Origin: an uncultured Actinomycetota bacterium
GTDB lineage: Bacteria > Actinomycetota > Actinomycetes > Mycobacteriales > CADCTP01
DNA length: 64,000 bases
Assembly: GCA_963766325.1 (NCBI GenBank)
Contig: CAVXZF010000007.1
Location: forward strand, 935,794 to 999,793
Reading direction: 5' to 3'
Shown here: positions 17,180-26,567 of the stretch, in pieces
How the letters are laid out: each line of letters opens with the position of its first letter
Numbering within the stretch: position 1 is the first letter of the stretch
Program-made: the position numbers and the translations under genes
Notes under the pieces: model-generated
What the model was told of the DNA's origin: nothing
What the model saw: only the letters and a program-made list of their open reading frames with translations
Database searches by the model: none

Positions 17180-18391
17180 ATGGTCGCCATGGGAGCACGC
17201 GTGTCCGACCGCATCGGGGCGATCGCGGAGTCGGCGACCCTCGCCGTCGACGCCAAGGCGAAGGCGCTCAAGGCGGCCGGCCGGCCGGTGATCGGCTTCG
17301 GTGCCGGGGAGCCGGACTTTCCCACCCCGGAGCCGATCGTGGCCGCGGCGGCCGAGGCCTGCCGCGACCCCCGCAACCACCGCTACACGCCGGCCGCCGG
17401 GCTGCCGGAGCTGCGCGAGGCGATCGCCGCCAAGACCGACCGCGACTGCGGGCTGATCGTGCCGGCCGCCCAGGTGCTGGTCACCAACGGCGGCAAGCAG
17501 GCCGTCTACCAGGCCTTCGCCACCCTGCTCGACCCGGGCGACGAGGTGCTGCTGCCGGCGCCGTACTGGACGACCTACCCGGAGTCGATCGCGCTGGCCG
17601 GCGGGGTGCCGGTGCCGGTCGTCGCCGACGAGTCGACCGGCTACCTGGCCACCGTCGAGCAGCTCGAGGCGGCCCGGACGACGCGGACCAAGGTGCTGCT
17701 GTTCTGCTCGCCGTCCAACCCGACCGGTGCCGTCTACCCGCCCGAGCAGGTCGCGGCGATCGGCCGCTGGGCGGCGGAGGCCGGCCTCTGGGTCGTCACC
17801 GACGAGATCTACGAGCACCTGACGTACGGCGACGCCCGGCACGTCTCGATGCCGGTGGTCGCGCCGGAGATCGGGGACCGGTGCGTGGTCGTCAACGGGG
17901 TGGCGAAGACGTACGCGATGACCGGCTGGCGGGTCGGCTGGATGCTCGGCCCGGCCGACGTGATCAAGGCCGCCGCCAACCTGCAGTCCCACCTGACCAG
18001 CAACGTGGCCAACGTGGCGCAGCGGGCCGCGCTGGCCGCGGTGAGCGGCGACCTGACCGCGGTGCACGAGATGCGGGCCGCGTTCGACCGGCGCCGGCAG
18101 ACCATCGTCCGGATGCTGCGCGAGGTGCCCGGGGTGGAGTGCCCGGAGCCGTTCGGCGCGTTCTACGTCTACCCGTCGGTGCGCGGGCTGCTCGGCCGCG
18201 AGCTGCGCGGCCGCACGCCGGCGACGAGCGCCGAGCTGGCCGAGCTGATCCTGGAGGAGGCCGAGGTCGCGGTGGTGCCGGGCGAGGCCTTCGGCACCCC
18301 CGGCTACCTCCGGCTGTCGTACGCGCTCGGCGACGACGACCTGGCCGAGGGCATCACCCGCCTCCAGAAGCTGGCGGCGGAGGTTCGTTAG
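17180..18391 (+). CDS. pyridoxal-phosphate-dependent aminotransferase (aspartate aminotransferase-like, class I)
   Basis: [17 protein letters not shown]...[15 protein letters not shown]...[10 protein letters not shown]...[16 protein letters not shown] (PLP-lysine region). The start could be ATG 17180 or ATG 17189. The track start at 17096 is unlikely. Confidence 0.88.
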
Positions 18392-19848
18392 GGCAGGGCG
18401 CCGGCGTCCTGGAGGACCTTGACGGCGGCCGGCAGGGCGCTCAGCTGGGCGGCGAGGTCGGCCGGGCGGGCGATCCGCCAGGCGTTCGCGTTGACGTAGC
18501 AGCGGATGGCCGCGTCGAAGCGCACCGCGCCGGCCGCCTCCCGGGCGGCGGTCAGCGCGGACGCGCCCTTCGCGTACGTGGTCGTGTAGTAGGCCCGCTC
18601 GTCGTCCCCGTACGAGGCGGCCGAGTCGCCGACCCGGCCGGGCAGCCGCAGCGCCCGGTCGGTGGGGGTGCCGTCCACCAGCTCCTGCGCCCAGCTGGCG
18701 AACGCCTCGTCCAGCCACGGGTCGCGGGCCTGCGAGTTGCCGACCATGCCGTAGAACCACTGGTGGGCGACCTCGTGCACGGTGACCAGCCGGCTGTCGT
18801 CGAGCATCAGGATCGACCCCGGATACTCGATGCCGCCGCCGCCCAGCGGCAGCCGGGCCAGGCTGATGACCGGGTACGGCGGCGGGCCGAAGCGGCGGGC
18901 CAGCTCGCGCACCGCCCGGGTGGCCTCGGCCAGCAGCGCCTGCGGCCGGGCACCGGCCGGCACGCCGACCACCACCCGGGTGCCCGCCACGGTCCCCTCG
19001 GCCAGCTCGAACGGTCCGACCGCGACGCTGACGTCCCGGGCCCGGTCGGCCACCGAGTGCCAGCGCCGGCGGCCGTTGCCGGCGCTGGTCGGCAGGTCCG
19101 GGGTGCCGCTGCTGAGCACCGTGTACGCCGCCGGCGCGGTCACCGTGAGGTCGACCACGGCCGCCTCGCTGGTCGCGCTCTCCGCGGTGAACTGCAGCAG
19201 CGGCTCCTTGTGCCAGCCGACCCCGCGCTCCCAGGCGAGCAGCGGCTGCCCGCTGCCCCACCAGGCGTACTGCTGGAGCCGGCCGAACCGGTCGAACGCC
19301 TGCCGGCCGAGCGTGAGTGTGAAGCCGACCTGCGCGGTGACCTGCTGCCCGGCGGGCACCTCGCGGCCGAGCGGCACCACCAGGACGCCGCCCTGGGTGT
19401 CGGGCGAGGCGCCGGCCGGCTCGACCCGGTACGCGCCGCCCACCGGGTCAGCGGTGGCCGAGGTGATGTCGATCCGGTTGCCGCCGGCGACCGAGGGCGC
19501 CGTGTTGGCGGTCAACCGGAAGACCAGCTCGCGGACCGGCAGGTCGGGGGTGAAGGTGACCCGCTCGGTGCCGCGGACGGTGGCCAGGTCCTCGGCCAGG
19601 TCGAAGGTGAGCGTGATCCGCGGGCGGGCCGGGTCGGGCGCGACGTACGCGGCCGGGCAGCTGCCGCCACCGGCCGGCGGCGGCGCGCCGGGCGAGGCGG
19701 ACGGGTCGGCGGGGCTGGCCGACCCGCGGGCGTCCAGGAACGTGCCGGAGCCGCCGGAGCAGCCGGCCGCGAGCGCCGAGACCAGCGCCAGCACGGCGAG
19801 GCGGGACCGGCGGGGGGACCGGCCCGGCACGATGGTCAACAAGGGCAT
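18388..19848 (-). CDS. M1-family zinc metallopeptidase, lipoprotein
   Basis: 486 aa. Lipobox LAAGCSGG. Gluzincin motif [29 protein letters not shown] (HExxH-18-E). Confidence 0.8.
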
Positions 19849-21876: not shown

Positions 21877-21953
21877 TGGTAGCGGGGGCCGGACTTGAAC
21901 CGGCGACACAGCGATTATGAGCCGCTTGCTCTGCCTGACTGAGCTACCCCGCC
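21877..21953 (-). tRNA. tRNA-Met (anticodon CAT), encoded CCA end
   Basis: Reverse complement GGCGGGGTAGCTCAGTCAGGCAGAGCAAGCGGCTCATAATCGCTGTGTCGCCGGTTCAAGTCCGGCCCCCGCTACCA. Cloverleaf by eye; anticodon loop CTCATAA. Confidence 0.9.
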
Positions 21954-21982
21954 CCGGCGGCGGCGCGCCGGCCGCCGCACAG

Positions 21983-22055
21983 AGCCCCCTTACGGAATCG
22001 AACCGTAGACCTTCTCCTTACCATGGAGACGCTCTGCCGACTGAGCTAAGGGGGC
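21983..22055 (-). tRNA. tRNA-Thr (anticodon GGT)
   Basis: Reverse complement GCCCCCTTAGCTCAGTCGGCAGAGCGTCTCCATGGTAAGGAGAAGGTCTACGGTTCGATTCCGTAAGGGGGCT. Anticodon loop ATGGTAA. Confidence 0.9.
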
Positions 22056-22113: not shown

Positions 22114-22301
22114 CTGCCCATCGGCTCGGCTCCGGGCTCGCTCCGCTCCTCGGGCGCCTGGGGCGCCCTGCGATGCTCACTCCCCCCTCACCTCACCCTG
22201 CCCATCGGCTCGGCTCCGGGCTCGCTCCGCTCCTCGGGCGCCTGGGGCGCCCTGCGATGCTCACTCCCCCCTCACCTCACCCTGCCCATCGGCTCGGCTC
22301 C
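22114..22301. repeat. 84-bp direct tandem repeat, ~2.2 copies (units start at 22114, 22198 and 22282)
   Basis: The two full units read identical by eye, and the third is truncated after ~20 nt. Each full unit carries the hairpin GGGCGCC-TGG-GGCGCCC. The array sits between the GGDEF-EAL stop (22307) and the tRNA-Thr 5' end (22055). Confidence 0.9.
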
Positions 22302-22306
22302 CTCGC

Positions 22307-24859
22307 TCAGGCAGTGAGCAGGTGCAGCCGCCGTCCGCGCACCCCGGGCTGCCCGGGCCGGATCGCGGTCCGCGCCGACAGCCAGGCGTCCAGCCGGTCC
22401 GGGTCCAGCGCGCGGCTGACCAGGTAGCCCTGGATCACGTCGCAGTCGTTGCCGGCCAGCAGGTCGCGGGCCAGCTCGTCCTCGACGCCCTCGGCCACCA
22501 CCCGCAGGCCCAGGCTGTGGCCCAGCTCGATGATCGCCCGCACGATGGCCAGGTCGCCGAGATCCGTCCCCATGCTGAAGACGAACTCCTTGTCGATCTT
22601 GACCTCGTCCACCGGCAGCCGGCGCAGCTGGGACAGCGAGGAGTAGCCCGTGCCGAAGTCGTCGATGGACAGCCCGGTGCCGAGCTCGTGCAGCCGGTGC
22701 AGCACCGGCTTCATCCGGTCCGGGTCGGTCATCACGCTGGACTCGGTCAGCTCGAAGCTGACCATCTCGGCCGGCACCTCGTGCTCGGCCAGCAGCGCGG
22801 CGACCCGGTCCGGGAACTCGGCGTCCAGCAGCGTCCGGGCCGACAGGTTGACCGCGACCGGGATGCGCAGGTCCCGGTCCAGCCAGGCCCGGCACTGCTC
22901 CAACGAGATCCGCAGCACGTGGTCGGTGAGGATGCCGATCAGCCCGGTGACCTCGGCCAGCGGGACGAACCGGTCCGGCACGACCTCGCCGAACTCCGGG
23001 TGGTTCCACCGGACCAGGGCCTCGACGCCGACCAGCTCCCGGGAGCGCAGGTTGACCTTGGGCTGGTAGCGGACCACCACCTGGCCCTCGCCGAGCGCGG
23101 CCCGCAGCTCGGTGACCAGCCGGAGCCGCTGCAGGCTCTCCTGCTCCATGGACGGGTCGTAGACGGTGATGTGCCGGCCCACGTTCTTGGCGTTGGACAG
23201 GGCCACGTCGACCCGGCGCATCATGGTGGAGCCGTCGTCGCCGTGCTCCGGGGCCAGCGCCACCCCGGCCGTGGCGGCGGCGTCGATGGTGAGCCCGGCC
23301 AGCGGGTACGAGGTCGACACCGCGGCACGCAGGGAGCGGGCCAGCTCGGCGGCGGCCGCTCCGTCCGGCACCCGGCTGACCACCGCGAACTCGTCCGCGC
23401 CGACCCGGGCGACCATCGCGTCGGGCGGGGACGCGGCCCGCAGCCGGCCGCCGACCAGCATCAGCAGCTGGTCGCCCCAGGTGTGCCCGAGCGAGTCGTT
23501 GACCTCCTTGAAGCGGTCCAGGTCGAGCTGGACCAGGGCCACCACGCCCGCGCCGCCGGCCTCGATCGCGGCGTCGATGTGCTGGCTCAGCTTGGACCGG
23601 GTGGGAAGGTCGGTGAGCTGGTCGTGGTACGCCGCGTGCCGCAGCCGGGCGACCAGCTCCTGGTTCTCCAGCGCCGAGGTGAGGTGGGCGCCGAGGTTTT
23701 CCACCAGGTGCACGTCCTCGCCGGAGAACGAGGTCATCTCGCCCTGCCGGTCCTGCAGCTCCAGGTAGCCGCGGACCCGGCTGCCGCTGCGCAGCGGCAC
23801 CGCGATGACCTCCTCGGCGCCCCGCTCGTGCAGTGCGGCGAGCACCACGTCCGGCGTACGGCGGCGGTCGAAGAGCAGCCCGCCGCGGCTGTCGAGCACC
23901 CGCTTGGTCAGCGCGTCCGCGCGCGGCGCCGGCCGGGTGACGACCGGGCCGTCGCTGACCTCCGTGACCACCAGGTCGCCGTCGTCGAGCAGCAGTCCGA
24001 GCCGGACCACCTCGGCGTTCACCCCGGCGCGGATCTCCTGCAGCGCGACCGCGAGCGGGCCGTCCATGCCGCGTACCTGCTCCAGCAGCCGGCTGAACCG
24101 GTACACCCGGTCGAGCACCTGGTGCTGCTTGCGGGAGCGCGCGTAGCCGCGGTACGCCACGTACAGCACCACGCCGAGGATCGTGATCAGCGCCCCGGAC
24201 CAGGGTGCGACCGACAGGCTCACCACGACGATCAGCGCGATCGCGGTGTTGAGCAGCGCGGACAGCAGGCCGGTGCCGAGCCCGCCGAGGGCCTCCCGCC
24301 ACGGCGGCATCAGGTCGGTGAGCACGATCACCGCCAGCACCGAGCCGTGCGACACCACCGACGCGACCGCGATCGCCGCGGCGGCCGCCAGCCAGGACCA
24401 CGGGTCGACCGCCTCGATCGGGTGCGCCGCCAGCGCGTGGAAGACGGTCAGCGCGAGCGCGGTCTCGGCCGCGAAGAGGCACAGGTTGAAGAGGATCTTG
24501 ATCGGCGGCCGCCGCCGCACGATCATCAGCGCCGCGGCGGCCACCAGCCGGACGGTGAGCAGGACGAGCGGGTCGACGAAGAAGAGACCGAGGACGAGCG
24601 GCAGGTCGGAGACCGAGATGGAGTACGTCTCCCGATGGAACTCGACGTGCAGCTGGGTCGCCTCGGCGGCGACGAAGACCGCCAGCAGGATCGCGGCGGG
24701 GAGCAGGTCGGACGTGGAGAGCGGCCCACCGTACAGCGAGCCGGTGAACAGGCCGCAGGCCACCGCGACGACCGCCAGCACGGACGCGATGACCAGCGGC
24801 GCCCGCGGCAACGAACGCGCCGGGACCGGCGCCGCTCGGACCTCGGTTGACCCTGCCAC
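22307..24859 (-). CDS. membrane-bound GAF-GGDEF-EAL signalling protein (c-di-GMP turnover; GGDEF motif degenerate, GADEF)
   Basis: 850 aa. Multi-TM N-terminus and a GAF-like segment. RVGADEFAVV in place of GGDEF. EAL domain with EALVRW, DDFGTGYSSL and KIDKEF. Confidence 0.88.
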   Translation of the reverse strand: MAGSTEVRAAPVPARSLPRAPLVIASVLAVVAVACGLFTGSLYGGPLSTSDLLPAAILLAVFVAAEATQLHVEFHRETYSISVSDLPLVLGLFFVDPLVLLTVRLVAAAALMIVRRRPPIKILFNLCLFAAETALALTVFHALAAHPIEAVDPWSWLAAAAAIAVASVVSHGSVLAVIVLTDLMPPWREALGGLGTGLLSALLNTAIALIVVVSLSVAPWSGALITILGVVLYVAYRGYARSRKQHQVLDRVYRFSRLLEQVRGMDGPLAVALQEIRAGVNAEVVRLGLLLDDGDLVVTEVSDGPVVTRPAPRADALTKRVLDSRGGLLFDRRRTPDVVLAALHERGAEEVIAVPLRSGSRVRGYLELQDRQGEMTSFSGEDVHLVENLGAHLTSALENQELVARLRHAAYHDQLTDLPTRSKLSQHIDAAIEAGGAGVVALVQLDLDRFKEVNDSLGHTWGDQLLMLVGGRLRAASPPDAMVARVGADEFAVVSRVPDGAAAAELARSLRAAVSTSYPLAGLTIDAAATAGVALAPEHGDDGSTMMRRVDVALSNAKNVGRHITVYDPSMEQESLQRLRLVTELRAALGEGQVVVRYQPKVNLRSRELVGVEALVRWNHPEFGEVVPDRFVPLAEVTGLIGILTDHVLRISLEQCRAWLDRDLRIPVAVNLSARTLLDAEFPDRVAALLAEHEVPAEMVSFELTESSVMTDPDRMKPVLHRLHELGTGLSIDDFGTGYSSLSQLRRLPVDEVKIDKEFVFSMGTDLGDLAIVRAIIELGHSLGLRVVAEGVEDELARDLLAGNDCDVIQGYLVSRALDPDRLDAWLSARTAIRPGQPGVRGRRLHLLTA

Positions 24860-24964
24860 GCGTCGCTCCGTCTCGGGGGATCCTGCGACAGCATGCCACG
24901 AGACCGGGCCAGGATCATCCGGTTCCGGCCACCCAGACAGGGGCCGGGGGTCCGGAGCTAAGGA

Positions 24965-25096
24965 TCAGTTCCAGCTGGCCCCGTCCATCACGTTCCAGCT
25001 GGCGCCGTCCATCACATTCCAGCTGGCGCCGTCCAGGAGATTCCAGCTCGCGCCGTCCAGGAGATTCCAGCTGGCGCCATCGAGGAGAGCGGACAT
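24965..25096 (-). CDS. unannotated small ORF: 43-aa tandem-octapeptide repeat peptide MSA-(LLDGASWN)x3-(VMDGASWN)x2
   Basis: ATG at 25096 with AAGGAG 6 nt upstream; TGA at 24965-24967. Within the DGASWN core, all differences between the five repeats are synonymous (gat/gac, gcc/gcg, ggc/ggg, aat/aac). Below the 60-aa cutoff of the ORF track. Confidence 0.6.
   Translation of the reverse strand: MSALLDGASWNLLDGASWNLLDGASWNVMDGASWNVMDGASWN
24968..25087. repeat. 24-bp tandem repeat x5 (the coding repeat of the small ORF), each unit carrying CCAGCTGG or a variant
   Basis: Direct reading gives five head-to-tail 24-nt units (ttccagctggcgccgtcc + atcaca/aggaga). Confidence 0.9.
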
Positions 25097-25340
25097 GGAA
25101 GGCTCCTTAACCGTCACGGGGAGGGACCGAACCGCTCGACCCGCCGCCGGTCCCCGCGAACGAGTAGATGTGCAGAGAGTAGCCGTCGCAGGCGCGATAA
25201 GGGAATTACGGGCCTAGTTCGGACACGCTCTGCAACGAAATCTGCTGGCACAGTTAGGGGGTACTGACCCGTCCTGGTGACCCATAGCGTGTCGCTCAGC
25301 GCATAAGTGACCGAACCACGACAAGCGGGAAGGTGCCTCG

Positions 25341-26567
25341 ATGGACGTCCAGGACGGGCTCGGCGGCGGTGGCGAGCAGGGGATGTGGGAGCCGGACGGC
25401 GCCGGCAGCGGGTCCGGCTCGACCGACCCGAGCGGCTACGACGGCGCGTACGACGACGGCGGCACCGACGGCTCCGGCGGCTACGACGACGGCACCGAGG
25501 ACGGCGGCACCGACGACGACGGCACCGACGACGGCTCCGGCACCGGCTCCTCCGGGGGCGAGGGCGGCGACGGCGGGACCCGGCCGGCCGGCGGCACGCT
25601 GACCGTCGAGGTGGAGGGGCAGACCCGCGAGCTGCCGGCCGAGCGGGACTACACCGGCGACGGCCGCCCGGACGCGGCCGCGGAGACCTCGGACGGCAAG
25701 GTGATCATCTTCGCCGACACCGAGAACAACGAGACCGGCGCCGTCGGGCCGGACGGCAAGGCCGACGAGGCGTACGTGGTCGACAAGGAGACCGGCCGGG
25801 TGGTGGGCGCGGCCCACATCGACCCCGCCTCCGGCGAGTGGGTCGAGGGCACCGACACAGACGGGCCGAGCGCGACCCAGCCGGCCGGGTCCGGTGGCGA
25901 CCCGGGCACCACCCGGGACGGCGGCTCCGGCGAGACGCCCGTCGTGATGGTGGAGGTCGGCGGCCAGGAGATCGGCGTCCCGCTCACCGTGGACACCGAC
26001 GGGGACGGCCAGGCCGACAGCGGGGTCATCTATCAGGACGGCAAGGCGATCGTGCTGACCAGCACCGACGCCGACCCGGCGGCGGAGCAGGCGACGGTGG
26101 TGGACCCGGCCACGGGGCAGGTCGTCCAGGTGTCGCACGTCGACCCCGAGACCGGCGAGTGGGAGGACGGCCCGGCACCGAGCCCCGGCGGCGAGCCCGG
26201 CTCCGGCGGCCCGGGCACCGGCGGCGAGCCGGGTGCTGGATCGGACACCATGGTCGTCGACCTCGGCGGGCAGAGCCGCGAGCTGCCGGCCGAGCGGGAC
26301 TACACCGGAGACGGCCGCCCGGACGCGGCCGCGGAGACCAAGGACGGCAAGGTCATCGTGTTCGCCGACACCGAGAACAACGAGACCGGCGCCGCCGGGC
26401 CGGACGGCAAGGCCGACGAGGCGTACGTGGTGGACAAGGAGACCGGCCGGGTGGTGGGCGCCGCGCACGTGGACCCGCGCACCGGTGAGTGGGTGGAGGG
26501 CGTCGACACCGACGGCTCCCCGGCGGTGCCGGCCGCCAGCGGCGGCGGGAGCGGGGTGGACAGCTGA
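25341..26567 (+). CDS. hypothetical acidic protein with a Gly/Asp-rich N-terminus and three ~90-aa internal repeats carrying DxxGDGxxD (FG-GAP/VCBS-like Ca-binding-type) motifs
   Basis: 408 aa. GGAAGG RBS 7 nt upstream of the ATG. The repeats ELPAERDYTGDGRPDAAAET.DGKVI.FADTENNETGA.GPDGKADEAYVVDKETGRVVGAAH.DP..GEWVEG.DTDG occur twice nearly identically, with a diverged middle copy (VDTDGDGQADSGVIYQDGKAIVL...). Confidence 0.7.
   Translation: MDVQDGLGGGGEQGMWEPDGAGSGSGSTDPSGYDGAYDDGGTDGSGGYDDGTEDGGTDDDGTDDGSGTGSSGGEGGDGGTRPAGGTLTVEVEGQTRELPAERDYTGDGRPDAAAETSDGKVIIFADTENNETGAVGPDGKADEAYVVDKETGRVVGAAHIDPASGEWVEGTDTDGPSATQPAGSGGDPGTTRDGGSGETPVVMVEVGGQEIGVPLTVDTDGDGQADSGVIYQDGKAIVLTSTDADPAAEQATVVDPATGQVVQVSHVDPETGEWEDGPAPSPGGEPGSGGPGTGGEPGAGSDTMVVDLGGQSRELPAERDYTGDGRPDAAAETKDGKVIVFADTENNETGAAGPDGKADEAYVVDKETGRVVGAAHVDPRTGEWVEGVDTDGSPAVPAASGGGSGVDS
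25626..25865 (+). repeat. Intragenic direct repeat, copy 1 (partner at 26277-26516, offset 651 bp)
   Basis: The nucleotide strings are near-identical by eye over ~240 bp. Confidence 0.8.
26277..26516 (+). repeat. Intragenic direct repeat, copy 2
   Basis: See 25626-25865. Confidence 0.8.

Follow-up and report, generated by a model that had tools for sequence, protein, structure and literature searches.

The 64,000-nt stretch of actinobacterial DNA analysed here (the window) carries on its minus strand a short open reading frame (sORF) of 43 codons that is almost certainly a real peptide-coding gene. Its predicted product is a leaderless micropeptide made solely of tandem octapeptide units, three to six of them depending on the locus, and the gene lies directly upstream of a membrane-bound c-di-GMP enzyme. 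We favour, with a probability of roughly 40% for the explanation as a whole, that the peptide partners this adjacent enzyme in trans. Small ORFs are routinely missed, and this one makes a clean and statistically strong case for a micropeptide gene from sequence alone. An architecture in which the whole product is a tandem repeat without a leader is also unusual.

The sORF occupies positions 24965–25096 (minus strand), and its 43 codons and TGA (24965–24967) translate as MSALLDGASWNLLDGASWNLLDGASWNVMDGASWNVMDGASWN*, that is, MSA followed by five units in which LL, LL, LL, VM and VM precede DGASWN. Direct reading placed a Shine-Dalgarno (SD) sequence, AAGGAG, at 25103–25108 (minus strand), six nucleotides (ccttcc) before the ATG at 25094–25096, and 105 nt separate the stop codon from the GTG (24857–24859) of the enzyme gene. 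The architecture described in the initial annotation, from AAGGAG through the 6-nt gap, ATG, five 24-nt units and TGA to the GAF-GADEF-EAL gene 105 nt further on, was reproduced base for base. The five-unit array, with one octapeptide repeat per 24-nt unit, spans 24968–25087 (minus strand) in a listing of the units; Tandem Repeats Finder placed it at 24969–25088, with a period of 24, 5.0 copies, 90% matches and no indels. No second such array was found elsewhere in the 64-kb window. The GC profile of the sORF is of the coding type (GC1 0.56, GC2 0.51, GC3 0.88), and the enzyme gene, with GGAG and GTG, has a weaker SD and start codon than the sORF. The encoded peptide has neither a signal sequence nor a transmembrane segment, is devoid of His and Cys, carries a single acidic residue in each unit, and gave an AF2 model with a pLDDT of 52 and no confident fold. 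Read unit by unit, the DGASWN cores of the window differ only by GAT/GAC, GGC/GGG, GCC/GCG and AAT/AAC, all synonymous, and unit 2 (GCG AGC) disrupts the CCAGCTGG palindrome; both had been noted earlier, and both were found to be correct.

An sORF of the same kind was present in 12 distinct loci of uncultured actinobacteria (the window, L001/L002, L003, L004, L024/L091, L125, L126, L127, L131, L132, L133 and L134), all carried on metagenomic contigs or MAGs. In every one of the 12, an ATG with a purine-rich SD (AAGGAG, GGGAG or GAGGAG) in the 20 nt shown upstream opens a frame that remains open through all units, and in 11 of them a UGA stop codon follows directly after the last W-N or W-T. 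Only four to six residues (MSxx(xx)) stand ahead of the first unit in most loci. Wherever the available sequence reaches the downstream flank (11 of 11 loci), the sORF lies upstream of an orthologous membrane GAF-GADEF-EAL gene on the same strand, at a distance of 104–121 nt, or 171 nt in L001. Frame, start codon, repeat-number variation and GGDEF-EAL linkage, which the initial annotation had proposed to follow across orthologous loci, were all borne out by these 12 distinct loci. Among the matches listed, the sORF was recovered only beside this gene family; more distant enzyme homologues (about 30% identity; L129 and L130) were found without it. On the other side of the sORF, at least seven loci carry a divergent DUF6802 gene, and the recurring gene order is a divergent DUF6802 gene, the sORF, and the gene for the S-component-like membrane/GAF/GADEF/EAL protein.

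The number of repeats varies from three to six per locus, around a consensus unit of [hydrophobic]-x-D-G-[A/S/G]-[S/T/G]-W-[N/T] in which D, G and W are invariant. The core reads DGASWN, DGSTWN, DGSSWN, DGGSWT or DGAGWT and is uniform within the locus in 11 of the 12. Among 49 core units from 10 loci, the core Trp was encoded by TGG in all 49, and D and G did not vary. All 29 core codons that vary within a locus do so synonymously (37 extra alleles), against a chance expectation of only 17–20%, the share of random single-base core changes that would be synonymous. Ser is encoded by both AGC/AGT and TCC/TCG, within L126 and L127 as well as between clades, and these two-class swaps retain the amino acid while two to three bases change. 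The linkers vary in sequence and in length (two or three residues in L001), always keeping the frame and always by multiples of three nucleotides. GC3 was 0.83–0.93 in 11 of the 12 sORFs, with GC1 and GC2 at about 0.5. By this pattern, selection acts on the amino-acid sequence of the sORF; the earlier proposal of selection on the peptide and not on a DNA repeat is supported by the 12 loci and by core variation that is exclusively synonymous.

The same data effectively refute a non-coding repeat at the DNA or RNA level, be it an operator array, a minisatellite or an RNA repeat bound by proteins, in which the ORF would be incidental. The CCAGCTGG palindrome does recur in the window units, UGGA and GAYGG are invariant in the RNA (as W-N/T and D-G demand), and the antisense co-phased frame is stop-free in all loci, but the residues of that frame change. 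Variation is confined to the synonymous positions of one frame, the Ser codon swaps preserve the amino acid at the cost of two to three bases, linker length changes only by multiples of three, and the start codon, the SD and the placement of the stop are conserved. The palindrome itself is missing in clades where Ser is TCC or TCG, and a DNA operator or palindrome array was rejected on this ground. Two related members, P0014 and P0015, share an N-terminus and have five and four units, respectively, and the units of L134 are identical in DNA, indicating a recent expansion. As judged from such comparisons, units are gained, lost and re-expanded in 24-nt steps.

Two further ideas were discarded at this stage. 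Tuning by the rare codon AAT, which had been raised from the window alone, did not survive the comparison: of the 43 Asn codons in relatives, 39 are AAC and 4 are AAT. Stop-codon readthrough or an ancestral fusion with the enzyme gene was rejected because the relative frame of the two genes varies in the relatives (0, 0, 1, 1, 1, 2, 2, 0), which also have extra in-frame stops. The sORF and the enzyme gene share a frame in the window, which is a coincidence given these relatives.

Database searches recovered few further members. An exhaustive HMM search of 1.84 billion representatives returned 70 matches, and most of those inspected were unrelated, eukaryote-looking tandem repeats, e.g. MEYHGISWNI and PPGASWRLL. 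Only P0001, P0002, P0015, P0016 and P0076 belong to the family, with P0069 as a possible member, and the large proteins P0083 and P0086, found in the same clusters as HMM matches, were dismissed as unrelated. A pattern scan of metagenomes gave at least 120 stretches; among the matches listed, two were true loci (L024 and L091) and 118 had no clustered core repeat and look like chance. Because this count is a lower bound, the true abundance of the sORF family is underestimated. None of seven exact family sequences was found in a collection of 15 billion proteins, and few relatives have ever been called as genes. Pfam searches with four peptide variants yielded sub-threshold noise only, Prion_octapep (PF03991) included, and in full-text literature 'DGASWN' gave one chance match and 'DUF6802' none, with S-components and diguanylate cyclases never linked. 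The motif, not recognised at the outset, has no family in Pfam, Rfam or the full-text literature; further members can be sought with (x2-D-G-[AGS]-[STG]-W-[NT])n.

The downstream gene (22307–24859, minus strand) encodes an 850-aa membrane protein in which a multi-helix N-terminus of ~260 aa is followed by GAF, GGDEF and EAL domains. These Pfam matches agree with the membrane GAF-GADEF-EAL protein previously predicted there. The protein has GADEF at its GGDEF motif and retains EALVR, DDFGTGYSS and EGVE; by these motifs the enzyme is probably a phosphodiesterase. An AF2 model of residues 1–270 had a pLDDT of 72, and its best PDB matches were S-components of ECF transporters (TmRibU, E 5e-4, TM 0.63–0.68, target-normalised). 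In this medium-confidence model (TM-scores 0.4–0.68), the membrane domain resembles an S-component-like ligand-binding bundle. The sORF is locked to one c-di-GMP enzyme, the sensor domain of which, in this model, resembles a small-molecule-binding transporter subunit. Among the loci that keep DGASWN, the N-terminal domains of the enzyme are only 38–62% identical.

The divergent neighbour (25341–26567, plus strand) encodes an acidic repeat protein of 408 aa that resembles DUF6802 (Pfam E 6e-7 for the window copy), and its DxDGDG-type loops look calcium-binding by eye. A divergent gene with an MDV(Q/H)DG..MWEP-type start was found at the same position in L004, L125, L126, L131 and L134, and one with another start in L001. 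The divergent product of L133 resembles the DUF6802 repeat of the window by eye. Pfam analysis of ten neighbouring ORFs identified the c-di-GMP enzyme, DUF6802, an FAD disulfide reductase, HAD, SDR, a MaoC-type dehydratase and an M1 peptidase, and three ORFs had no match. No radical-SAM, ATP-grasp, YcaO, P450, dedicated peptidase or transporter was detected by Pfam within ~5 kb of the sORF, a span in which three ORFs had no match; the M1 peptidase lies ~5 kb away, at 18388–19848. Synteny conserved in L001, L125, L131 and L133 holds only the c-di-GMP enzyme and DUF6802.

This neighbourhood bears on a multi-core precursor of the RiPP or signal-peptide type, which would be cut to hexa- or octapeptides, possibly modified at Trp, Asp or Ser/Thr, and exported, with the enzymes encoded elsewhere. 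Fungal alpha-factor is one peptide with tandem identical cores, and cyanobactins (PatE) and graspetides (such as plesiocin) are others. The sORF shares with PatE, plesiocin and alpha-factor a small precursor-like product with tandem identical cores in variable copy number (three to six), and cores that are uniform within a locus and different between lineages. The stop exactly at the core end in 11 of 12 loci also means that the last copy needs no C-terminal trimming. In contrast to those precursors, the sORF has no leader, follower, signal or recognition sequence, its linkers are not conserved cleavage sites, and no tailoring enzyme, protease or exporter lies near it or in the conserved synteny. 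A longer precursor or an N-terminal leader encoded by the upstream block was considered and rejected. One frame of that block is open in the window, L004, L125, L131 and L134, but it is interrupted by stops in L001, L126 and L127 and broken by a frameshift in L003/L024, and it keeps no fixed phase with respect to the sORF; the block is therefore non-coding, and only the four to six residues mentioned above remain ahead of the first unit in most loci. The RiPP-like role suggested by the initial annotation is weakened accordingly, its repeated cores holding up but its leader and its tailoring enzyme both missing from the places searched, and we consider it very unlikely.

The non-coding DNA that flanks the sORF is unusually conserved and looks like two promoters. 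Upstream, alignments delimited a putative, conserved 5' UTR (25117–25184, minus strand) with a box GGCTACTCTCTGCACAT (25168–25184) and a hairpin-capable, GC-rich block (25117–25158, minus strand; CGCGGGGACCGG..GGGTCGAG..GTTCGGTCCC..CCCCG), and the upstream region as a whole showed 78% mean column identity over 167 nt. Further out lies a putative promoter or operator of the sORF (25205–25240, minus strand), proposed from its conservation pattern and its resemblance to the consensus. It comprises a near-invariant block TTTCGTTGCAGAGCGTGTCCGAAC (25217–25240, minus strand) with a -35-like TTGCAG (25230–25235), a constant 19-nt spacer (25211–25229, minus strand) of which eight bases (25211–25218) are variable, and a -10-like CGTAAT (25205–25210, minus strand), the last recognised by conservation pattern. 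The divergent locus L133 keeps ATAAT ~20 nt before the GGCTACTCTCTGC box. A strict sigma-70 scan gave nothing at the putative sORF promoter.

On the other side, alignments of the 105-nt spacer between sORF and enzyme gene (24860–24964, minus strand) showed the boxes CGGAACCGGATGA (24915–24927) and TGGCATGCTGT (24888–24898) and the SD GGAG (24866–24869). The 19 nt between the boxes vary in sequence but not in number, and in L127 TTGCAC replaces GGATGA. Together with a TGn-CATGCT shape, these features suggest an internal extended -10 promoter within the spacer. In RNA terms, RNAalifold draws a hairpin in the 5' block with a covariation term of +0.71, which gives no support. In each homologue, the minimum-energy fold pairs the enzyme SD and start region with an invariant GCAUGCUGU box; 76.7% of the cells of this SD-sequestering helix are paired, 106 of 500 shuffles scored equally high, and covariation gave no support. 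Conservation of RNA structure across the 5' region and the spacer is thus unsupported on both tests. A known RNA element, such as a riboswitch or leader, was rejected: Rfam covariance models yielded no relevant match in 10 kb at E<=1, nor in a 506-nt region at E<=10.

The scan for terminators returned no terminator-like site and no attenuator was found, no C-over-G bias or C-rich tract that could serve as a Rho loading site followed the sORF stop, and in 8 of 10 loci the hairpins after the stop did not exceed shuffled sequence in stability (z +0.2 to -1.1). The missing terminator or attenuator, the shuffle-like hairpins, the promoter-like spacer boxes and the stronger SD and ATG of the sORF all favour a product that acts in trans, and we lean towards such action over one solely as a nascent chain. 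The invariant gene order and the S-component-like ligand-binding membrane domain favour the enzyme as its partner, an assignment that we make tentatively, at slightly less than even odds. We hypothesize that the peptide is the functional product, and that it would act in trans on the adjacent enzyme and in this way set c-di-GMP turnover. It would either bind the enzyme as a multivalent repeat peptide or supply multiple copies of a short ligand with Trp to the membrane or GAF sensor of the enzyme, which is of the ligand-binding type. A peptide ligand or modulator of this kind would link ribosomal peptides directly to c-di-GMP control. By analogy, MgrB is a small protein that modulates the membrane sensor PhoQ, and the sORF product, also under 60 residues long, is linked genetically to a membrane signalling protein, its proposed target. 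MgrB-type modulators are single-pass membrane proteins without repeats, whereas the sORF peptide is predicted to be soluble, is made up of repeats throughout and lacks a hydrophobic helix. The classical position of an upstream leader ORF, inside very conserved non-coding sequence, counts against a role in trans.

That position is the starting point of the main rival explanation, a cis-acting leader ORF, to which we give perhaps one chance in several. The nascent repeat would slow or arrest the ribosome, perhaps when a small molecule (for instance tryptophan) is sensed, at each xxDGxxWx or at the terminal W-N-UGA, and ribosome occupancy would thereby set transcription or translation of the enzyme gene. 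TnaC, SecM and MifM are leader peptides that act in this manner, by nascent-chain arrest or sensing, and TnaC has W12 and D16. The sORF resembles them as a short ORF located 104–121 nt (171 nt in L001) before the potentially regulated gene, with the amino-acid-level conservation typical of arrest peptides, an invariant Trp and Asp in the W-x3-D spacing of the essential pair of TnaC, and, in 11 of 12 loci, a final W-N or W-T that runs straight into UGA. DGASWN is kept although the sensor domains of the enzyme are only 38–62% identical, which fits a target more conserved than the receptor domain, e.g. the ribosome tunnel. The conserved spacer boxes and the recurrent pairing of the enzyme SD and start region with GCAUGCUGU point the same way. 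Yet neither an intrinsic terminator nor any rut-like element was found at the sORF loci, the hairpins after the stop and the SD-sequestering helix fared no better than described above, and the promoter-like geometry of the spacer boxes would uncouple the two genes. Known arrest peptides, to our knowledge, hold one motif, whereas the sORF has three to six identical eight-residue motifs in varying copy number, no C-terminal Pro and a c-di-GMP enzyme as its downstream gene. A switch of all units to DGSTWN, DGGSWT or DGAGWT would also be unexpected for contacts with the ribosome tunnel, and UGA is in any case the expected commonest stop codon in very GC-rich genomes. Should the repeat nevertheless cause ribosome arrest, it would represent a new type of translational sensor. 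In either case, the sORF and the enzyme gene form a compact pair amenable to testing in a heterologous actinobacterial host.

Attenuator leader ORFs that respond to amino acids offer a related comparison, among them trpL and the polycysteine short ORFs of mycobacteria (bioRxiv 10.1101/834739). Like these, the sORF is a short actinobacterial ORF before a larger gene and is enriched in one codon (Trp, one per eight). However, its Trp codons stand apart instead of in a cluster, selection on the intervening residues is strict (D and G are invariant, and the other core positions admit only conservative alternatives), and the downstream GAF-GADEF-EAL gene is unrelated to Trp metabolism. The sORF also has a strong SD and not a leaderless start, and no terminator or antiterminator structure was found.

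A different possibility, raised like the cis-acting leader in the initial annotation, is a small repeat protein, here taken as autonomous, independent of the enzyme and merely co-located and co-regulated with it and with the DUF6802 protein, for example a repeat that binds a metal or calcium, a Trp repeat that attaches to the membrane interface or the cell wall, or an oligomerising beta-hairpin repeat. Several features would suit such a protein: it is repetitive throughout, with a D-G dipeptide of the turn type at regular intervals and a Trp every eight residues, its gene apparently has its own promoter and a strong SD, and its acidic divergent neighbour carries the calcium-binding-looking loops mentioned above. 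The L127 variant, (FADGGSWT)x6, moreover gave the best score to the copper-binding octarepeat profile of prion proteins (PF03991; 18.9 bits, E 0.0016). The likeness to the prion repeat (PHGGGWGQ) lies in the eight-residue period and the G-G/small-small-W pattern, and is closest for DGGSWT, but the score is far under the curated cut-off of 32 bits, the window peptide gave no match to the profile, Asp replaces the copper-anchoring His and the organisms are unrelated, so that we regard it as a pattern analogy only. Against an autonomous protein, the peptide has no His or Cys and a single acidic residue per unit, AF2 gave no confident fold, and three units (L003 and L134) are too few for a stable solenoid. 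The strict linkage to one gene family among the matches listed likewise argues for a functional tie, and we consider an independent protein unlikely.

Within the trans-acting explanation that we prefer, a more specific version is a self-contained, leaderless, multi-copy peptide signal bound by the membrane domain of the enzyme, which resembles a vitamin transporter (ECF S-component type), in an autocrine or quorum circuit of two genes leading directly from ribosomal peptide to c-di-GMP turnover. We regard this version as speculative and improbable. A role as an extracellular ligand would require further machinery, because the peptide has no signal sequence or transmembrane segment and no exporter or protease is adjacent. 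In such a circuit, general peptidases would free several copies of a Trp-containing hexa- or octapeptide from the sORF product, and the lineage-specific cores DGSTWN, DGSSWN, DGGSWT and DGAGWT would represent pherotypes. The monoisotopic mass of DGASWN, calculated from residue masses, is ~648.25 Da.

The small ORF (sORF) lies at window positions 24965-25096 on the minus strand and consists of AAGGAG, a 6-nt gap, ATG TCC GCT, five 24-nt units and TGA; its translation, read from the window up to the stop, is MSALLDGASWNLLDGASWNLLDGASWNVMDGASWNVMDGASWN. Tandem Repeats Finder placed the array at 24969-25088 (period 24, 5.0 copies, 90% matches, 0 indels). Within the six-residue DGASWN cores the units differ only by GAT/GAC, GGC/GGG, GCC/GCG and AAT/AAC, all four silent, and the GCG of unit 2 disrupts the CCAGCTGG palindrome. 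Between cores, the LL to VM linker switch amounts to three base changes. The base profile is of coding type (GC1 0.56, GC2 0.51, GC3 0.88; G+C of the window 73%). The stop is 105 nt from the GTG (24857-24859) of the gene for an 850-aa membrane GAF-GADEF-EAL protein (22307-24859, minus strand), here called the enzyme. All details of the initial annotation, including the start context, silent core changes and distance to the enzyme, were reproduced from the window sequence.

A peptide query against 5.8 billion proteins gave two matches, P0001 and P0002, each encoded directly upstream of a homologue of the membrane GAF-GGDEF-EAL gene. In the metagenomic locus L001 this homologue is followed by rpmG, an SDR gene and genes for HadA/B-like dehydratases, in an order resembling that of the window. 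Reverse searches with the N-terminal 400 residues of the enzyme found one locus (L004, a ‘Mycobacteriales bacterium’ MAG) among 185,579 species genomes and 11 proteins in a large protein collection. The sORF was present at all five enzyme homologues above ~45% identity with a recovered 5' flank (L125, L126, L127, L131 and L132), and is absent from distant homologues (~30% identity; L129 and L130). In L129 (5001-8896) one gene encodes the membrane domain (430 aa) and the gene next to it the GAF-GGDEF-EAL part (848 aa); genes for a subtilisin-like peptidase and an Flp pilin lie ahead of this pair, which has no repeat sORF. A degenerate DNA pattern added at least two further metagenomic loci (L024 and L091), a profile search P0014, P0015 and P0016/L133, and an exhaustive HMM search P0076/L134. 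The profile also matched many unrelated predicted proteins (P0021, P0025, P0031, P0040, P0041, P0049 and P0067) that consist of ...HGISWNIMEY... or ...PPGASWRLLG... repeats; they have the look of eukaryotic satellite DNA in translation, and any search using the motif may pick up such false positives.

The family thus comprises at least 12 distinct loci, all from metagenomes or MAGs labelled Mycobacteriales or Streptosporangiaceae. Its distribution is narrow, with about a dozen loci, all uncultured; this number underestimates its abundance, the metagenome count being a lower bound. The sORF shows the linkage to GGDEF-EAL genes that the initial annotation had proposed to look for: wherever a locus extends far enough, the sORF has the same c-di-GMP enzyme as its neighbour. 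None of seven exact family sequences, the window's included, occurs in a 15-billion-protein collection, and the family is essentially unannotated.

The core DGASWN occurs five times in the window, L004 and L125, six times in L131, three times with one decayed unit in L003, five times with one decayed unit in L024/L091, and four times in L001/L002, which have a longer N-terminus and a RAYAAAAA tail. Other arrays contain DGSTWN (five, L126), DGSSWN (five in L132 and P0014, four in P0015), DGSSWN and DGSTWN (three and one, L133), DGGSWT (six, L127) or DGAGWT (three, L134). Copy number varies from 3 to 6, a variation that the initial annotation had proposed to look for, and P0015 has one unit fewer than P0014. 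The three units of L134 are identical in DNA, indicating recent expansion. In L126 and L127 the units have existed long enough to differ in serine codon class. The arrays turn over by birth and death of units. On the L131 contig many genes are broken, that of the enzyme into calls of 205 aa and 101 aa, a pattern typical of indel errors in long-read assembly; the six-unit sORF of this contig is intact despite this.

Codons were counted in 49 core units from 10 loci. TGG is present in all 49, Asp is encoded by GAC or GAT, and Gly by GGC, GGT or GGG. All 29 core codons that vary within a locus (37 extra alleles, 10 loci) vary synonymously, compared with a silent share of 17-20% for random single-base core changes; for ten independent events, the chance of an all-silent outcome is ~1e-7. 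Serine is swapped between AGC/AGT and TCC/TCG among clades and also inside L126 and L127, so that the residue was kept across two or three base changes. The linkers are diverse (LL, VM, LY, VC, LC, LW, FQ, LQ, LI, LF, FA, YA, CL, RY, RMT and LMT), and in L001 their length also varies, by whole codons only. The co-phased antisense frame is stop-free, yet its residues vary (VPAGAV, VPARAV, VPGRPV etc.). Frame and start are kept across loci: the ATG is conserved and has a purine-rich SD in the 20 nt ahead of it, and in 11 of 12 loci the last unit runs straight into a TGA. These sequence patterns show that selection acts on the peptide, not on DNA or RNA, in agreement with the initial annotation, and that the sORF is a real small gene whose repeat peptide is under purifying selection. 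Such peptide-level selection effectively excludes a non-coding repeat.

The ~200 nt upstream of the sORF are also conserved as DNA (78% mean column identity), and the non-coding flanks (25117-25240 and 24860-24964, minus strand) are more conserved than the neighbouring proteins. The upstream region comprises a near-invariant TTTCGTTGCAGAGCGTGTCCGAAC block, a gap of constant length (19 nt) from TTGCAG to a -10-like box, the other 8 bases of this gap varying in sequence, an nnTAAT box, ~20 variable bases, a GGCTACTCTCTGCACAT box and a GC-rich hairpin-capable block. The 105-nt spacer is laid out in like manner: CGGAACCGGATGA, 19 bases of constant length and variable sequence, TGG-CATGCT, and a variable stretch before GGAG and the start codon; L127 has TTGCAC at the GGATGA position. 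By geometry and consensus resemblance, both arrangements are putative promoters, that of the spacer of the extended -10 type. A strict promoter scan of the flanks found none, Rfam gave nothing, and RNA-structure readings of the flanks were without covariation support. CCGAAC or CGGAAC, or the complement GTTCGG, occurs three times (25217-25222, 25127-25132 and 24922-24927) and could be a shared operator. A 7-bp inverted repeat, TGCAGAG (25229-25235) and CTCTGCA (25171-25177), has its arms 51 nt apart.

The conserved upstream block is open in one frame in some loci. A longer precursor starting there was rejected because of stops in L001, L126 and L127, a frameshift in L003/L024 and a varying phase to the sORF. 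Readthrough or fusion with the enzyme was likewise rejected, the relative frames being 0,0,1,1,1,2,2,0 with further in-frame stops in relatives; the in-frame relation in the window is coincidental. On present evidence a classical attenuator is ruled against: a scan found no terminator at the locus, the post-stop hairpin is not unusually stable in 8 of 10 loci, no C-rich tract follows the stop, and the Trp codons lie apart instead of forming a cluster. Rare AAT codons, previously suggested as a tuning signal, do not hold up either, as the window's AAT positions are AAC elsewhere.

No described family fits the sORF, which we rate as belonging broadly with conserved upstream small ORFs or micropeptide genes. 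Attenuator leaders differ from it in codon clustering, peptide constraint and terminator, and RiPP precursors in leader and enzymes. Pfam gave only sub-threshold noise on the peptides, and in the full-text literature ‘DGASWN’ turned up once, by chance, and ‘DUF6802’ not at all, consistent with the motif not having been recognized initially. Within ~5 kb lie the enzyme, tRNA-Thr, tRNA-Met, an SDR, a MaoC-type dehydratase, an M1 peptidase, a DUF6802 protein, an FAD disulfide reductase, a HAD hydrolase and three ORFs without Pfam match; only the enzyme and DUF6802 genes recur in the loci read. This neighbourhood gives no support for a RiPP cluster, and the earlier remark that no tailoring enzyme is adjacent was borne out by Pfam, the three unmatched ORFs aside. 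That the peptide is a precursor of a RiPP or signal and is processed by the products of distant genes is very improbable. The most suggestive Pfam match, the prion copper octarepeat profile with the DGGSWT variant, reached 18.9 bits, below the 32-bit cut-off; an autonomous repeat protein binding metal, membrane or wall seems doubtful.

The enzyme contains GAF, GGDEF and EAL domains (Pfam). Its GGDEF signature is GADEF, and EALVR, DDFGTGYSS and EGVE are intact, as in those orthologues whose sequence covers the motif concerned; judged by these domains, the enzyme is probably a c-di-GMP phosphodiesterase. Pfam found no domain in the first 270 residues, which AF2 modelled as a helical membrane bundle (pLDDT 72). 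The best PDB matches of the model were all ECF-transporter S-components (RibU, ThiT, FolT, BioY, PanT and CbiM; best E 5e-4, target-normalised TM 0.63-0.68). The predicted membrane domain (residues 1-260; 24080-24859, minus strand) thus resembles S-components, whose fold binds small ligands. The literature yielded no description of an S-component-like sensor fused to GAF-GGDEF-EAL. A second open frame of 875 codons (22272-24899, same strand, other frame) spans the whole gene from a GTG within the conserved TGGCATGCTGT box; it is probably a high-GC shadow ORF, since by its GC3 the frame at 22307-24859 is the coding one.

We propose, with a probability of roughly 0.6, that the sORF peptide acts in trans. 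In favour of this are the lack of detectable attenuator machinery, the promoter-like spacer, translation signals that are stronger for the sORF than for the enzyme gene, the variable copy number, and switches of core type across whole arrays. The leading, though tentative, candidate for its target is the adjacent enzyme; the peptide could bind it multivalently or, alternatively, supply its ligand-binding-type sensor with several copies of a short Trp peptide. A multi-copy peptide signal that has no leader and is sensed by an S-component-like c-di-GMP enzyme is improbable; if true, it would be something categorically new. The main rival, a cis-acting nascent-chain sensor of the TnaC/SecM/MifM kind, is unlikely but draws on the position upstream of the enzyme, the W-x3-D spacing, and a DGASWN core better conserved than the enzyme's sensor domain (38-62% identity). 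Arrest peptides resemble the sORF in position and peptide-level constraint; unlike them, the sORF has a repeat architecture.

The DUF6802 gene (25341-26567, plus strand) is divergent from the sORF in the window and in at least seven other loci. It encodes a very acidic, D/G/T-rich protein of 408 aa, without a signal peptide, that has three internal repeats of ~100 aa each (DUF6802) with DYTGDGRPD and VDTDGDGQAD loops, which look calcium-binding; the gene contains 15-nt tandem repeats at 25438-25535. On the other side of the sORF, a perfect 84-bp tandem duplication (22114-22301; 2.2 copies, 100% identity) overlaps the 3' end of the enzyme ORF (stop 22307-22309) with its last six bases and otherwise extends into the spacer before tRNA-Thr (21982-22055, minus strand) and tRNA-Met (21877-21953, minus strand). 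Its appearance suggests either a duplication event of very recent date or an artefact of the assembly.
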